Assembly (NCBI GenBank): GCA_965219385.1
Contig: CBDCNM010000002.1
Location: forward strand, 1,088,639 to 1,152,638
DNA: 64,000 bases
Source of the DNA: Candidatus Latescibacterota bacterium
Lineage (GTDB): Bacteria; Latescibacterota; UBA2968; UBA8231
Reading direction: 5' to 3'
In this document: in pieces, positions 23,239 through 35,254 of the stretch
How the letters are laid out: each line of letters begins with the position of its first letter
Position numbering within the stretch: the first letter of the stretch is position 1
Made by a program: the position numbers and the translations under genes
The notes under the pieces: model-generated
What the model was told of the DNA's origin: nothing
Database searches by the model: none
Seen by the model: the letters and a program-made list of their open reading frames with translations, nothing else

Positions 23239-23523
23239 GTGTTTGACAGCAGCAATTTCATGGACGGGGTAATCGGGATAATCGTCCACCTGCTGGACAT
23301 CTACAAGTGGATCGTCATCATCCGGGTGTTGCTTTCCTGGATAAACCTGGATCCCTACAATCCGATCGTCCAGTTTCTGCGCAGCATCACCGATCCGGCC
23401 ATCGAAGGACTGCGGCGCTTTATGCCAAACCTCCTGTGGTCTACCGGCGTTGATTTTACCCCGCTGGTATTGATAGTTTTGCTCCAGGTCGCCATTATGT
23501 TTTTTGAAAGCATTCACTTCTGA
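23239..23523 (+). CDS. yggT: YggT family membrane protein
   Basis: RVLLSWINLDPYNPIVQFLRSITDP..DFTPLV; follows yggS. Confidence 0.92.
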   Translation: MFDSSNFMDGVIGIIVHLLDIYKWIVIIRVLLSWINLDPYNPIVQFLRSITDPAIEGLRRFMPNLLWSTGVDFTPLVLIVLLQVAIMFFESIHF

Positions 23524-23533
23524 AGATGCACCC

Positions 23534-26500
23534 ATGGATACAACCAGCAGATCCGACCGGCCGCGTTTTGCCGAGGTTTCCGCTCAGACCGACTTTCCCC
23601 GTCGAGAGGAAGAGATCCTGCGCTTCTGGAAAGAGGGCGGTCTGTTCGAAAAGTCGGTGGAAAATCGGCCCGCGTCCAGGTCCTTCATCTTCTACGACGG
23701 TCCGCCCTTCGCCAGCGGCCTGCCGCACTACGGCCACCTCCTGGCGTCCATCATCAAGGATGTGGTGCCGCGCTACTGGACCATGCGCGGCTATCGGGTC
23801 GAGCGCCGTTTCGGCTGGGACTGCCATGGTCTGCCGGTCGAAAACGAGGCCGAGCAACAACTGGGCCTGGGCTCCCGGCGCGACATCCTGGCCCATGGCA
23901 TCGATCGCTTCAACGAGTCGTGCCGCGACCTGGTACTGCGGTTTACCGCCGAGTGGCAGCAGTTCATTCAACGCGTCGGTCGCTGGGTCGACTGGTCCAA
24001 CCAGTACCGCACCATGGACCCCGAGTTCATGGAGTCGGTGTGGTGGGTGTTCAAGTCGCTGTGGGACAAAGGCCTGATCTACGAAGGCTACAAATCCCTG
24101 GCCTACTGCCCCCGCTGCGCCACCCCGCTGTCGAACTTCGAGGTGAATCAGGGGTATCAGGAGGTTCAGGACCCCTCCATCACGGTGCGCTTCAAGGTGC
24201 GCGATACCGAGAACACCTCCATCCTGGCGTGGACCACCACCCCGTGGACCCTGCCCTCGAACATGGCCCTGGCCGTGGGCCGCGATATTCCCTATGTGCG
24301 GGTAGCGCTACGCGACGGCGAGCAGCTCATCGTGGCCAAATCCCTCTTCGAACAGATCTTCCAAAAACACAAAGACGGTATCGCCCAGGTCCAGGACCTG
24401 TCCGTCGAAGGGTTGTTGGCAATGCACTACGAGCCGCTCTTCGACTACTTTGCCGACAGGCGGGACCAGGGCGCCTTCCGCGTGGTTGCCGCCGATTTCG
24501 TCTCCACCGAAGAAGGCACCGGCATCGTCCACATCGCCCCCGGGTTTGGCGAGGACGACCACTTGCTGGGCCGGCGGGAAGGCATTCCAGTGGTGTGCCC
24601 GCTCGATGAGGACTGCTGTTTCACCCACGAGGTCGGCGACTACCAGGGACAGTTCGTCAAGGAAGCGGACAGCCCCATCATCCGCCAGCTGCGGCAGAGC
24701 GGCCAGCTCTTTGCCGAGGGCTCCCTGGTACACAGCTATCCGTTCTGCTGGCGCTGTGAATCACCGCTCATCTACCGGGCCATCTCGACCTGGTTCGTGG
24801 ATATCCAAAAGATCAAGGACCGCATGGTAGCCGCCAACCAGCAGATCTGGTGGGTTCCCGAGCACATCAAGGACGGCCGCTTCGGCAAAGGGCTCGAAGG
24901 GGCGCCCGACTGGTCCATCAGCCGCAACCGCTACTGGGGCACCCCGCTGCCGGTCTGGCGCAACCAGGAAACCGGTGAGACCGTATGCCTCGGCAGCCGT
25001 GCCGAGCTGGAACAGCACTGCAACCATCCGGTCGAGGATCTGCACAAGCACGTAATCGATCCGATCGAAATCCCCAGTGCCGACGGCAACACCACCCTCA
25101 GACGCATCCCCGAGGTCCTGGACTGCTGGTTCGAATCGGGTTCCATGCCCTATGCTCAGAGCCACTATCCCTTCGAGAACAAAGACTTCTTCGAGGACAA
25201 CTTCCCGGCGGATTTCATCTCCGAAGGCCTCGACCAGACGCGGGGCTGGTTCTACACCCTCACGGTACTGGGCGCCGCGCTTTTTGACAAGCCGTCCTTC
25301 AAAAACTGCATCGTCTCGGGTATGCTGCTGGCCGCAGACGGTCGCAAGATGAGCAAGCGGCTCAAGAACTACCCCGAGCCGACCGAGATGCTCGACCACT
25401 ACGGAGCCGATGCCCTGCGGCTCTACCTGCTCAATTCGGCGGCTCTCAAGGCCGAGGAGATGCGGATGACCGAGAGCGGCATCAAAGAGAGCCTGCGTTC
25501 GGTCATCATCCCGCTGTGGAATGCTTACAGCTTCTTTGTCACCTATGCCAATATCGACGACTGGTCCCCGGACCAAGCCCGCAACCTCGAGACCAACCAC
25601 CGCCTGGACCGCTGGATCCTCTCGGAACTCCAGACCCTGACCCACAACATCAACCTCGAGATGGAGGCCTACCGACTCTACCAGACCGTGCCGGCCATGG
25701 TCGAATTTGTTGAGAAGTTGACCAATTGGTACATCCGCCGCAGCCGGCGGCGTTTCTGGAAATCCGAAGACGACGCCGACAAGGCCTCGGCCTATGCTAC
25801 CCTTTACCAGGTCCTGGTGCAATTCGTCAAAACCCTGGCTCCGGTCCTGCCCTTTATCACCGAAACCATCTACCAGAACCTGGTGCGCACCTTCGATCCC
25901 CAGGCCCCCGAAAGCGTGCACCTGTGCGCTATGCCCCAGGCCGACGAAGCCAAGCGCGACCTCGAACTCGAAGAACAGATGGACCTGGCCACCCGCGCGG
26001 TGGTGCTGGGGCGCTCCCTGCGCAGCAAGCACCACCTGAAAATCCGCCAGCCGCTCAAGCGCCTCTTGCTCCTGCCGCCCGACGAACGCAGCCGCGTGGA
26101 ACTGGAGGACATGACCGACCTGATCGGCGATGAGTTGAACATCAAGGATGTGGTTCTGGTCGAGGATGAAAACTCTATAAGCCAGATTTCCTACAAGGCC
26201 AATTTTCGCGTCCTGGGTCCCCGCTTCGGCAAGCGCATGAAAGAGGTGGCCGCCCGCATCCAGCGGCTGACGCCCGAAGATTTAAAGCTCCTGAACGCCG
26301 GTGAAAAAATCGCGGTTGCCGACGGCGAAATCGGCCTGGAGGACATAGAAATCCAGCGCCGGGAAAAAGAGGACGTGGTCGTGGCGGTGGACAACAATCT
26401 GTGCGTCGGCCTGGACACGCACCTGAACCCTGTCCTGATCATGGAGGGCCGGGCGCGCGAATTCGTCAACCGGGTACAGAACATGCGCAAGGAGGCCGGT

Positions 26501-26701
26501 CTGGACGTGGCGGATCGCATCCACCTCTGGACCCGGAGCAGTCCGGCCCTGGAACAGGCCATCGAGGCACACAAGGACTACATTGCCGCCGAGACCCTGG
26601 CTCTGGACCTGCAGGTGGGCGCCTTGGCCGACGATCTTCTCTTGCGCCGGGAATGGCAGGTGGATGGCGAGCCCTGCATCATCGGCCTAAAGAAAGCCTA
26701 G
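23534..26701 (+). CDS. ileS: isoleucyl-tRNA synthetase, type 2
   Basis: DGPPFASGLPHYGH, GWDCHGLP, WTTTPWT, SRNRYWGTP, DQTRGWFY, KMSKRLKN; long C-terminus without the type-1 zinc finger. Confidence 0.97.
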   Translation: MDTTSRSDRPRFAEVSAQTDFPRREEEILRFWKEGGLFEKSVENRPASRSFIFYDGPPFASGLPHYGHLLASIIKDVVPRYWTMRGYRVERRFGWDCHGLPVENEAEQQLGLGSRRDILAHGIDRFNESCRDLVLRFTAEWQQFIQRVGRWVDWSNQYRTMDPEFMESVWWVFKSLWDKGLIYEGYKSLAYCPRCATPLSNFEVNQGYQEVQDPSITVRFKVRDTENTSILAWTTTPWTLPSNMALAVGRDIPYVRVALRDGEQLIVAKSLFEQIFQKHKDGIAQVQDLSVEGLLAMHYEPLFDYFADRRDQGAFRVVAADFVSTEEGTGIVHIAPGFGEDDHLLGRREGIPVVCPLDEDCCFTHEVGDYQGQFVKEADSPIIRQLRQSGQLFAEGSLVHSYPFCWRCESPLIYRAISTWFVDIQKIKDRMVAANQQIWWVPEHIKDGRFGKGLEGAPDWSISRNRYWGTPLPVWRNQETGETVCLGSRAELEQHCNHPVEDLHKHVIDPIEIPSADGNTTLRRIPEVLDCWFESGSMPYAQSHYPFENKDFFEDNFPADFISEGLDQTRGWFYTLTVLGAALFDKPSFKNCIVSGMLLAADGRKMSKRLKNYPEPTEMLDHYGADALRLYLLNSAALKAEEMRMTESGIKESLRSVIIPLWNAYSFFVTYANIDDWSPDQARNLETNHRLDRWILSELQTLTHNINLEMEAYRLYQTVPAMVEFVEKLTNWYIRRSRRRFWKSEDDADKASAYATLYQVLVQFVKTLAPVLPFITETIYQNLVRTFDPQAPESVHLCAMPQADEAKRDLELEEQMDLATRAVVLGRSLRSKHHLKIRQPLKRLLLLPPDERSRVELEDMTDLIGDELNIKDVVLVEDENSISQISYKANFRVLGPRFGKRMKEVAARIQRLTPEDLKLLNAGEKIAVADGEIGLEDIEIQRREKEDVVVAVDNNLCVGLDTHLNPVLIMEGRAREFVNRVQNMRKEAGLDVADRIHLWTRSSPALEQAIEAHKDYIAAETLALDLQVGALADDLLLRREWQVDGEPCIIGLKKA

Positions 26702-26705
26702 TAAG

Positions 26706-26734
26706 ACGCGATGTGTGACTTTTAAAATTCGACC
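26706..26734 (+). repeat. 29-bp direct repeat, left copy
   Basis: ACGCGATGTGTGACTTTTAAAATTCGACC, identical at 28202-28230. Confidence 0.95.
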
Positions 26735-27882: not shown

Positions 27883-28221
27883 ATGAGAACAGGAAAGCTT
27901 TCCCTACCCATTATCGGCCTGGTTATGGGGCTGCTGCGTGGCGCCGAGGCGCAGGAAAGCGAAAGGGTCTATCCCTTCATCGAGTTGACCGACGCGGACC
28001 TGGCCCAGATTGACGTGACCGATGGCTCGATCAACGAGTGGATCGGCCTGCTGGGCGAACCCACCCTGACCCTCCTGGACTTTCAGGCCGGTCCCGCGGG
28101 GTATGATCCGGCGGATATGGATTACCGCGTCTGGCTGGCCTGGCACGGAGCCACCCAGCGCCTCTATGTGGCCGTCGAGCGCTCGGATGATATATACAAT
28201 AACGCGATGTGTGACTTTTAA
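27883..28221 (+). pseudogene. 3'-truncated paralog of 26879-27841
   Basis: Near-identical first ~105 aa; homology stops where the right 29-bp repeat begins (28202). Confidence 0.88.
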
Positions 28222-28230
28222 AATTCGACC
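28202..28230 (+). repeat. 29-bp direct repeat, right copy
   Basis: Identical to 26706-26734. Confidence 0.95.
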
Positions 28231-28249
28231 AGTCTAATCTAGTAAATTA

Positions 28250-29051
28250 GTCGGGTAGCCGGGAGATGTCACCACCTCCCGGCCCCCTAAGAACCGTGCG
28301 TGCGACTTTCACCGCACACGGCTCAAGCAGACGGCTTCTCTTCACCGTAGTGAAGTCCTATGTTGGTCCACCTCAGATCATTGACCTTACGGTCTCCAGG
28401 GTCTGCTTACCGACGTGTTCCTCGGTATCTGAGCATCCCCCTGGATTGGTGATCTTTGCGGTCCTTCATGGTCCGTCCACCGGTTGCGCGTCAGCACCCT
28501 TTCGGGTTGGGTATTGCCCTATCTGGCGGGTTATGATTTCCCCTTGCCTTTCAGCAGCCAGCTTTCGCTTCTTGCAACATCCTGTTCCCACTGAGGATTT
28601 AGCCCTTCCTTACGATCGGGTTACTGGTGTAGCCAGACCTCATTGGGGTTTCGCTTTTCCGCATGAGTGAGATACGACCGGGTTAGGAGCCTACTCCTAC
28701 TATACGCCGGAGTCTGTGGTGTGCGCTCAGGGGCTAAGATACTCCCCTTGTCACTTCCGTGACCAAGACTCTTTGAACAGTCTTTTTCACATTTGACCCA
28801 ATACTACCGCATCAGCCACATTTCGGCAGCTAACTTTTACGATGCTTACGTAGATTCACTTCCGTTCTCCATACTGGTCTTTGCCTTGCCCTGTATTGAT
28901 TTGTGGCTATCTTTATATTAGGCTTTTCGCCTCTTGTTTCAGACCCCCCCGTTACCAGGGACGCAAGAGAGACTGGCAATTAACCTGCACACTGGTTAAA
29001 GAATCATTAACTGCTTTATTTTACTCAAGTTATGCGACTTTAAGCTCACAC
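28250..29051 (-). ncRNA. ORF-less group II intron (IIB-type), 802 nt
   Basis: Minus strand: 5' GTGTG at 29051; domain V GAGCCGTGTGCGGTGAAAGTCGCACGCACGGTTC (28324-28291); domain VI hairpin with bulged A at -7, ending CCCGAC at 28250; EBS1/EBS2 match the 5' exon; no RT ORF. Confidence 0.92.
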
Positions 29052-29092
29052 TCAAAGTAAAGTTGTACCGAAAAGCCGGAGACCGTTTATTT

Positions 29093-29470
29093 ATGAACAA
29101 GCAAGATCTGGAATACTTCAAAACCCTGTTGCTGGAAAAACGGGCCGAGGCCACCAGCACCCTGGCGGAATTCGAGCGCATGGCGCGCACCGAAGCTGCC
29201 CAGGAAGCCTCTGAAGACCGCTCTGCCTACTCCCTGCACATGGCCGATCGGGGCACTGATGCCATGGAGCGCGAGAAATCCCAGCTCTTCGCCCAGCGCA
29301 GCGGCGATTACATGGAATACCTCGAAGAAGCCCTGGATCGCATCGCGGACGGCACCTTTGGCTCCTGCCGGGTCTGCGGCCGGGAGATCAGCCGGGCGCG
29401 TCTGGAGGCCGTGCCCACGGCCACCCGGTGCATTACCTGCAAAGAAAAGGGAGAGACCGGATCCTCTTGA
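29093..29470 (+). CDS. dksA: DksA/TraR C4-type zinc finger protein
   Basis: HMADRGTDAMERE, ALDRIADGTFGSCRVCG..RLEAVP..CITCK. Confidence 0.9.
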   Translation: MNKQDLEYFKTLLLEKRAEATSTLAEFERMARTEAAQEASEDRSAYSLHMADRGTDAMEREKSQLFAQRSGDYMEYLEEALDRIADGTFGSCRVCGREISRARLEAVPTATRCITCKEKGETGSS

Positions 29471-34324: not shown

Positions 34325-35254
34325 GAAGCCGTCTGAAAACCCTCTGATGTAGTCGCATTTGAACGGGCGTACTCATCGAGCCATATTCAGGTTTCACCAC
34401 AAACTCTGAACAGAAAGGCTTGTATGATGAGTACACCGCGTATGCAATATGCCACCGATCTAACCGATGCACAATGGCAGCGGATCGAACCGTTGCTGCC
34501 CGCGCCGCGCTGGCGGCTTCACGGTCCGGGTCGGCCGCCGCGGGATCGACGCCAGCTTGTCAACGGCCTTTTGTATTTGAACAAGACGGGGTGTCCTTGG
34601 GCGTTGTTGCCTGCTTGTTTTGGGCCGTGGAAAACGGTGTATGATTACTTTCGTCGCTGGAGCCTGCAAGGGGTCTGGCCGCTGGTGTTGGATCGGCTGA
34701 CTAAGAGGGAGCGCCGCCAGAGCGGCCGGGCTGCGATGCCGTCGGCTGGCGTAGTCGATAGTCAGACGATTAAGACCGCAACGCATGGTAAAACAACCGG
34801 TTATGACACCGGCAAAAAGATCAAAGGCCGCAAACGGCATCTGTTGGTGGACCCGTCGGGTTTGCTTCGACAGGTGGTGGTCACCGCCGCCGATGTCGAG
34901 GATCGAGAGGGTTTGAAGCAGGTGTTGACCCGCTTGAAGGCCGCCGGCGTGGCTCGGTTACGCAAGCTGTGGGTTGATGGCGGCTACCAAGGCGAGGCCA
35001 TCCGAACGTGGGTGGCCAACCAAAAAAAGACGCACAAAATAGACTTGGAAGTCGTCGCCAAACAAGGCTCCGGATTTACCGTAGTTAAACGCCGGTGGGT
35101 CGTCGAGCGCACGTTTGCGTGGTTGATGAATTTTCGCCGACATGCCCGAGATTATGAGGTCTTGACCCGCCATAGTGAAGCCTTGATCCAGATTGCCATG
35201 ATCCACTTGCTACTTAAACGAATCAAATGAAAATTAGAGTTTTCAGACGGCTTC
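34325..35254 (+). mobile_element. IS5-family insertion sequence (IS1031-like), 930 bp
   Basis: TIRs GAAGCCGTCTGAAAAC / GTTTTCAGACGGCTTC; TAA duplicated at 34322-34324 and 35255-35257. Confidence 0.93.
34424..35230 (+). CDS. IS5-family transposase
   Basis: YATDLTDAQW, TGCPWALLP, DSQTIK, KGRKRHLLVD, DGGY, RWVVERTFAW. Confidence 0.95.
   Translation: MMSTPRMQYATDLTDAQWQRIEPLLPAPRWRLHGPGRPPRDRRQLVNGLLYLNKTGCPWALLPACFGPWKTVYDYFRRWSLQGVWPLVLDRLTKRERRQSGRAAMPSAGVVDSQTIKTATHGKTTGYDTGKKIKGRKRHLLVDPSGLLRQVVVTAADVEDREGLKQVLTRLKAAGVARLRKLWVDGGYQGEAIRTWVANQKKTHKIDLEVVAKQGSGFTVVKRRWVVERTFAWLMNFRRHARDYEVLTRHSEALIQIAMIHLLLKRIK

Follow-up and report, generated by a model that had tools for sequence, protein, structure and literature searches.

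Paired EBS1-type hairpins in an ORF-less group IIB1 intron, probably stranded after retrohoming, from the ileS-dksA spacer of a Latescibacterota bacterium

The ileS-dksA locus and its intron

The window considered here, that is, the whole 64,000-nt stretch of DNA analysed from a Candidatus Latescibacterota bacterium (genome G000), carries on its plus strand ileS (23504-26701) and a gene for a DksA/TraR-family C4 zinc-finger protein (29093-29470) that scores below the DksA equivalog cut-offs. The two genes are neighbours in relatives: ileS lies 8–110 nt before the dksA-like gene in all 19 of the kin loci fetched (from 39 matching genomes). In G000 the spacer between them is enlarged by a 1.5-kb block and by an intron on the minus strand (29051-28250; 802 nt), whose 5' end lies 41 nt from the start of the oppositely oriented dksA-like gene. 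This intron, hereafter copy A, is one of seven intron copies or fragments (A–G) recovered when the genome was searched for siblings, as the first-pass annotation of this DNA had proposed. Its orientation supports the earlier view that, being antisense to both ileS and the dksA-like gene, it cannot be spliced from their mRNA. A search upstream of copy A on its own (minus) strand found no sigma-70-like -35/-10 promoter, and the nearest terminator-like site there ends about 90 nt before the intron; no same-strand gene follows copies A, B or E. The 1.5-kb block is bounded by a 29-nt exact direct repeat (window 26706-26734 and 28202-28230) and holds a 320-aa ORF without an NCBIfam match along with a truncated paralog, for which tblastn returned 33 matches in the genome. 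Three RNA runs contain small shares of the window and provide no evidence of expression or habitat.

By its structure, as judged from a motif check, Rfam, the predicted fold and a helix model, copy A is an ORF-less group IIB1 intron with putative splicing activity. The group II hallmarks (5' GUGYG, AY end) are present: the 5' end reads GUGUG at 29051, and domain VI (28287-28250) has a bulged branch A at -7 (28256) and a GAC end. Domain V (28324-28291) is 34 nt long, with the AGC triad and every stem pair intact, while domain IV (28480-28327) is without an RT ORF and measures 154 nt, where some 155 nt had been estimated. In all these respects the first-pass annotation agrees with the present coordinates. 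Its suggestion of a covariance-model search met with a divided outcome: RF00029 matched over domains V–VI at 69.1 bits (E 1.6e-11), whereas the Rfam D1-D4-7 model gave 17.8 bits, below its cut-off of 34, which is passed by 6 of 16 related loci. The proposed folding of the RNA gave z = -5.85, with none of 20 shuffles equally stable.

The remaining architecture can be followed on the minus strand from the 5' side. The Ib hairpin (28999-28980) displays in its loop GUGUGC (28992-28987), which we take from general group II architecture to act as alpha, and it is complementary at 6/6 positions to alpha' GCACAC (28724-28719). Epsilon' (AC, 28937-28936) covaries between copies, being AC with G3-U4 in copies A and E and GC with G3-C4 in copies C and D. 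Beta (AGCCACA, 28908-28902) pairs at 7/7 with beta' (28820-28814), and delta' (A, 28846) lies on the 5' strand of the coordination loop. The basal helix and distal stems of domain II (28647-28587) come from the fold and the helix model; J2/3 with domain III follows (28582-28482), the limits of the latter in copy A resting on covariation among relatives, and the gamma G at 28582 pairs with the terminal C. In the helix model, built by hand, the helices hold across 13 aligned rows, and epsilon and delta covary; copy A has a helix mismatch count of 7 of 148, not above its siblings' in a model that was itself drawn from copy A. On the 5' side, helix I(i) is separated from helix I(ii) by only 4 nt, and this marks copy A as IIB1 rather than IIB2 under the criterion in the available sections of PMC8643678.

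Recognition of the insertion site

At its 5' junction copy A is flanked by an IBS1 (exon -6..-1; 29057-29052, minus strand) that pairs 6/6 by Watson–Crick with the EBS1 of a hairpin at 28784-28765 (H1), and by an IBS2 (-13..-9; 29064-29060) that pairs 5/5 with EBS2 (AAGUU, 28836-28832). Both pairings had been recognized earlier, UCAAAG as the complement of the last six exon nucleotides and AAAGUU (28837-28832) as that of -13..-8; both are confirmed, with EBS2 proper confined to five pairs to which -8 (29059) can add one. Two further contacts fail in copy A. EBS2a (A, 28838), placed after the portion of PMC8643678 consulted and confirmed by covariation among relatives, faces a C at -14 (29065), and EBS3 (U, 28702) is mismatched to IBS3 (T at 28249). 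Among relatives, EBS3 and IBS3 are paired in 18 of 24 parsed introns by Watson–Crick and in one more by wobble, and EBS2a pairs with IBS2a at -14 in 11 of the 13 parsed rows with EBS2 at 4/5 or better, the two misses being a parsing error and copy A. Covariation among these relatives assigns EBS3 to the 3' side of the coordination loop; it did not bear out a position for EBS3 and delta' 5' within Id(iv), which was rejected.

Thus, the site of copy A is near-cognate, with EBS1 and EBS2 paired and EBS3 and EBS2a mismatched, and the earlier description of it as a cognate homing site stands for the former two contacts and falls for the latter two. The 29-nt repeat and synteny show that the two flanks are parts of one ileS-dksA spacer, which rules out recombination between intron copies as the source of the EBS3 mismatch. 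Counting both strands, the exact IBS2-NN-IBS1 word is found only six times in the 5.8-Mb genome, the site of copy A included. In its general scheme the intron is like EcI5-type IIB1 introns, which, in the sections of PMC8643678 available, have a 5-bp EBS2 at -13..-9, EBS3 in the coordination loop and EBS2a two bases upstream of EBS2 in pairing with -14, rules that hold across the relatives here; copy A departs from them in breaking EBS2a and EBS3, and its lineage in having tandem EBS1-type hairpins. Unlike IIC introns, copy A has an EBS2 and is not inserted after a terminator hairpin.

Directly after EBS3 begins a tandem duplication of six nucleotides, AGUAGG x2 (28701-28690, minus strand), in the 3' strand of the coordination loop and helix Id(ii), which had been noted earlier on the plus strand as CCTACT x2 and taken as possible early decay. 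It is unique to copy A; none of the 12 other aligned rows has it. It is also real: contigs from three runs of one study (X1, X2 and X3) cover 28635-28905 without any difference, those of X1 and X2 spanning the 5' junction of the intron as well, and the identity of the three rules out an assembly artefact. The duplication either bulges helix Id(ii) or widens the coordination loop that it adjoins. With the wider loop, a G in the EBS3 slot could wobble with the exon U, so that an adaptive reading is possible, if unsupported; decay of copy A would be a plausible account of the repeat.

Tandem EBS1 loops

The first-pass inventory overlooked two features, namely a second EBS1-type hairpin and a -10-like target context. 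In the interval from helix Id(v) to alpha', copies A, C, D and E are 37 nt longer than copy B and single-loop relatives, and this interval forms three hairpins, H1, the small H2 and H3 (all on the minus strand). H1 and H3 are built alike, each with a stem of 5 bp and a loop of 10 nt whose third base is delta, with a 6-mer after it: in H1, the loop that matches the site, delta U (28777) precedes EBS1 (28776-28771), and in H3 (28748-28729) delta U (28741) precedes AUCUUA (28740-28735). The two are set apart by H2 (28763-28750), a small stem closed by a GGAA loop. H3 adjoins alpha' and is idle at the site of copy A, and placing it in the canonical helix register of copy A costs about 14 kcal/mol locally. 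The same three hairpins are carried by L194 in another genome. A duplication confined to G000 was dropped as the origin of the second loop, with L169–L172, L194 and L198, kin from the same family, being two-looped.

Both loop positions are used for matching the exon. Among 35 distinct two-loop introns with known flank, chosen by eye and scored with G-U pairs allowed (left out were near-duplicates such as L041, L056 and L080, introns with a single loop, and four rows in which the first stem was a small tetraloop or unclear), the flank is matched at 6/6 by the first loop only in 9, by the second only in 12, by both in 2 and by neither in 12, against exon-shuffled means of 2.6 for the first loop (maximum 8) and 1.5 for the second (maximum 6). 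Two of those counted as matching neither (L065 and L107) were mis-windowed and match with the first loop when re-read, and the first-loop match of L228 is a wobble-rich coincidence. At least four clades contain sister introns that do not use the same loop: L029/L030, L040/L047, L026 and L065 versus L055, L077 and L080, and L170 versus L171 and L172. Within the clade of copy A, the first loop serves A, D and E (6/6) and L170, L194 and L198 (5/6, with L198 read manually in the register set by delta), and the counterpart of H3 is the matching EBS1 in L171 and L172 (6/6). The loops of L055 and L077 are near-identical. In L075 the same flank-matching 6-mer is present in both loops, and L089 and L096 are of this type too.

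In 9 of the 10 two-loop introns of the copy A clade delta complements delta' in both loops (U/U with A in five introns, C/C with G in four), the register in idle loops being set by loop geometry; this suggests that the idle loop is kept dockable. The 6-mers themselves diverge: pairwise comparison of copies A, C, D and E finds differences at 22 of 36 positions in H3 and at 24 of 36 in H1, where the overall divergence is 15–24%; the variability of the idle loop could be plain lack of constraint.

An alternative account would have the second hairpin as a structural extra stem 5' of alpha', with the switching of loops reduced to one-off takeovers following duplication. The covariation of delta with delta' in idle loops speaks against it, as do the use of both positions within several well-supported clades and the doubled 6-mer of L075. 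Its strength lies in the dispensable extra stem 5' of alpha' known from class B beta (PMC4024640, as far as its available text goes), in single-loop members of the lineage (copy B, L062, the L032 group and L233), which mean that two loops are not needed, and in that no intron using different loops at two sites was found among the copies examined. We regard this account as possible if doubtful. In genome G464, one of two identical intron copies matches with loop 1 at 5/6 and the other with neither cleanly, and in G000 the sole site that would suit H3 of copy A perfectly is unoccupied.

The class B intron C.te.I1 of Clostridium tetani invites comparison, since it too is ORF-less, resides in a genome without an intron RT and has an extra stem 5' of alpha'. 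In contrast to copy A, it is a class B intron with a CGC triad, lies within a gene and splices in vivo, and its extra stem showed no function when mutated, whereas here either loop matches the exon in different relatives; class B beta requires the CGC triad and lacks beta-beta', as opposed to the AGC triad and 7-bp beta-beta' of copy A (PMC4024640, sections available). Alternative EBS-IBS pairing schemes are known from RmInt1, which, unlike the two-loop introns, combines a single EBS1 with an exon that offers an alternative IBS (PMC4238363, in the part seen). The examined text on TeI3 (PMC2882425) mentions no second EBS1 loop, and the literature searched (main texts, short of Michel 2007, Simon 2008 and the Zimmerly consensus structures) holds no description of one. 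Within that literature, the tandem EBS1 arrangement is a novel variation on known group II introns.

Target context

Upstream of copy A, overlapping IBS2 and IBS2a, is a hexamer, TACAAC (-16..-11; 29067-29062, minus strand), that resembles a -10 box at four of the six positions of TATAAT. Among relatives such words recur: a match to TATAAT at 5/6 or better starts at -19..-15 on the intron strand at 14 of 47 distinct sites, where 2.9 are expected from shuffles that keep -16/-15 and upstream windows give 0–2, the related introns in these counts not being independent. The reverse strand has TATAAT-like words at 6 of 47 sites, the signal being partly palindromic. A held-out set yielded 4 of 14 sites against 1.3 expected (p = 0.024), and a TAnnnT test on that set was not significant (p = 0.22). 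The hexamer sits at -18..-13 in the wider two-loop set and at -16..-11 in the copy A clade. With sigma-70 spacing, a transcript from such a hexamer would start within IBS1; 15–146 nt beyond five introns (L170, L176, L036, L171 and L172) lies a gene on the intron strand that has a Shine-Dalgarno-like motif. Copy A, with a hexamer of only 4/6 and no same-strand gene after it, probably landed at a look-alike word within an AT-rich spacer.

The bias is partial, with some members at tRNA ends or inside RT ORFs. A sub-branch of L059, L231 and L235 inserts at tRNA-like 3' ends with a T-loop motif just upstream, and L226 and L227 are inserted directly after a YADD-like coding stretch. A preference for Y-16/A-15 is already known for related proteins (PMC2882425, in the portion available). 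A parallel might also be struck with IIC introns, which favour terminators and attC, and with the Avi.groEL clade of IIB1 introns, which favours start and stop codons, in that all are biased towards a functional signal; here, unlike in those, the signal is a -10-box-like hexamer 11–13 nt before the insertion point, without a terminator hairpin (PMC4424553 and PMC12584367, both in part). Copy A also differs from the Avi.groEL clade, as the available text of PMC12584367 describes it, in having no 5'-subterminal insertion of 300–700 nt and in not lying at a start or stop codon. Promoter-box targeting by group II introns has no description in the literature searched, short of Michel 2007 and Simon 2008.

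Sibling copies, lineage and reverse transcriptases

Of the seven copies or fragments in G000, A and C are full length and the other five are broken. Decay within the family takes several forms, copy B lacking its 5' end, D having three IS insertions and E a large internal deletion, and F and G being fragments. The copies are 74–85% identical to each other, without a near-identical pair. EBS1 fits the copy's own flank at 6/6 in A, D and E, which indicates independent EBS-guided insertions; the expectation that EBS loops would follow each copy's flank is thereby borne out for these three and not for copy C, which matches its flank with neither loop (best 4/6), while B, F and G have no 5' end. 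The three IS elements in copy D (G000:C2:682779-686936) are each multi-copy in the genome (18–39 terminal motifs), and one of their transposases is nearly the same as that at window 34424-35230.

Beyond G000, the domain III motif retrieved 83 loci, 50 of them with an RT, 15 ORF-less and 18 assigned to neither class. The motif found no match in viral contigs, a G000-specific motif none in metagenome contigs, and a DNA search of 60 related genomes only a domain V–VI match and a 28-nt match. The RTs of the relatives have RVT_N, RVT_1, GIIM and HNH domains, and the solved structure nearest to the RT of L032 is 6ME0 (E 1e-111), which, as follows from the consulted sections of PMC8643678, is the T. 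elongatus maturase. RT+HNH kin with 54–81% identity to the L032 RT occur in 5 genomes of the same family, and a match of any kind to it in 8 of 168 genomes of the phylum. In the RNA tree the G000 copies join L062, L169, L170 and L172 at 100/99. The lineage probably belongs to the RT+HNH, chloroplast-like class, in which CL1 would be a candidate subclass.

Copy A had been described as a non-autonomous intron that needs an RT in trans, and its ORF-less structure supports this. The search for an RT-encoding partner, which that description entailed, came up empty: the G000 assembly, taken as 94% complete, has no match to the GIIM domain, its best score against TIGR04416 is 130 bits where the cut-off is 300, tblastn with the RTs of two relatives found no remnant of a group II RT, and no cognate RT intron, the criterion in TeI3-type systems, was found in it. 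The profile search returned three RVT_1 matches, each rejected as a partner: L006, the best of them, is the RT of a diversity-generating (DGR) system with a TR/VR pair, and L007 and L008 resemble defence-type RTs and lie under all NCBIfam cut-offs. The DGR (G000:C1:868224-870538) comprises the RT, a template repeat and a target with an FGE-sulfatase domain; its variable repeat is 77% identical over 117 nt, and there is a second possible target at C2:3702529. L007 (G000:C2:3320645-3322742), which is split into two frames, and L008 (3657550-3659331) stand beside restriction-modification-like genes. Since the first-pass annotation would itself have treated an intron without a partner RT or splicing as a relic, the missing RT makes copy A lean towards a stranded relic by its own reckoning.

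Evolutionary interpretation

The closest functional parallel is TeI3 of Thermosynechococcus elongatus (PMC2882425, available portion), likewise a set of ORF-less IIB1 introns, mostly intergenic, that spread within a genome by EBS divergence and depend on an RT in trans. Unlike G000, in which no RT was found and the copies share 74–85% identity, T. elongatus has retained its driver RT introns, and its copies are closely related. Copy A works like the ORF-less TeI3 introns, minus their defining resident driver RT. We therefore favour, with a fair measure of confidence, the reading that copy A, an ORF-less IIB1 intron with two EBS1-type hairpins, retrohomed through an RT supplied in trans that is now probably lost, and that it has been left stranded. 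The G000 family would have spread by means of an RT+HNH kin enzyme, since lost or unassembled, and copy A would have entered the ileS-dksA spacer with its help, landing on an imperfect -10-like word on the non-coding strand. There it is probably little transcribed and may have begun to accumulate lesions. On the sequence, it is most likely a stranded, near-intact relic; the intact domains V and VI are a point against decay and stranding, and in a 94% assembly the RT may simply be missing.

That last point bears on the view that copy A belongs to a non-autonomous family that is still mobile, as in Thermosynechococcus, its driver RT being unassembled, on a plasmid or present in part of the population. 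The incomplete assembly (93.96%, 2 contigs) leaves room for such an RT, the intron retains domains V and VI together with alpha, beta, epsilon and gamma, RT-bearing kin are present in the same family, and 4 of 5 genomes with ORF-less relatives hold a GIIM-domain RT of some sort, cognate or otherwise. We nevertheless consider continued mobility unlikely, with copies only 74–85% identical, five of the seven broken, no group II RT or remnant found in the assembly, and no joint skipping the intron in the contigs of four runs of one study, contigs being a form of data that drops rare variants. Highly improbable is a domesticated or protein-independent ribozyme, self-splicing in antisense from a captured -10-like box or tuning dksA and kept by the host like C.te.I1: the catalytic core is intact and unchanged in three runs, and all five near-full copies (A–E) have their 5' end facing the start of an opposite-strand gene at about 25–640 nt (about 1 in 32 by chance), but a DNA search of the 60 related genomes found nothing of the intron beyond domain V–VI-sized matches, ileS and dksA stand close together in every kin locus fetched, EBS3 is mismatched and no exon gene lies on the same strand.

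The second hairpin may have a role in how the lineage finds new sites. The lineage would carry a spare EBS1 loop, either loop being able to dock through delta-delta' and to act as EBS1; since either would be dockable, one could change its sequence with splicing maintained through the other, and over time lineages would switch loops. EBS2a and EBS2, along with the protein, would favour insertion at AT-rich intergenic words that resemble a -10 box. The full combination, a widespread lineage with two interchangeable EBS1 guide loops, reading of the promoter -10 box by EBS2a/EBS2, either loop serving for the variable bases around the transcription start, landing at about +4 to +6 of host transcripts, the idle loop as a reservoir and copy A as an orphaned miniature, is a bolder proposal that we offer tentatively, with more doubt than conviction. 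An EBS1 mutation normally costs an intron its splicing from the present site (PMC2882425, in the part available). A spare dockable loop, if real, would remove this cost and would explain how introns retarget: one RNP would recognise two target sequences, and specificity would change without a non-splicing intermediate. The two-loop design would also offer a natural two-guide layout for targetron-type tools. The 2015 review PMC4424553, in its available text, names C.te.I1 as the sole exception of an ORF-less intron in a genome without an RT; the seven ORF-less copies of G000, with no RT found, fall outside that pattern, though most are broken.

Genome G930 has seven copies of an L032-like RT (L241–L247), each with several in-frame stops. 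On the reverse strand of L035 (1299-2820) lies a twintron of two ORF-less members of the lineage, the inner intron sitting in domain II of the outer with EBS1, EBS2, EBS2a and EBS3 all matched.
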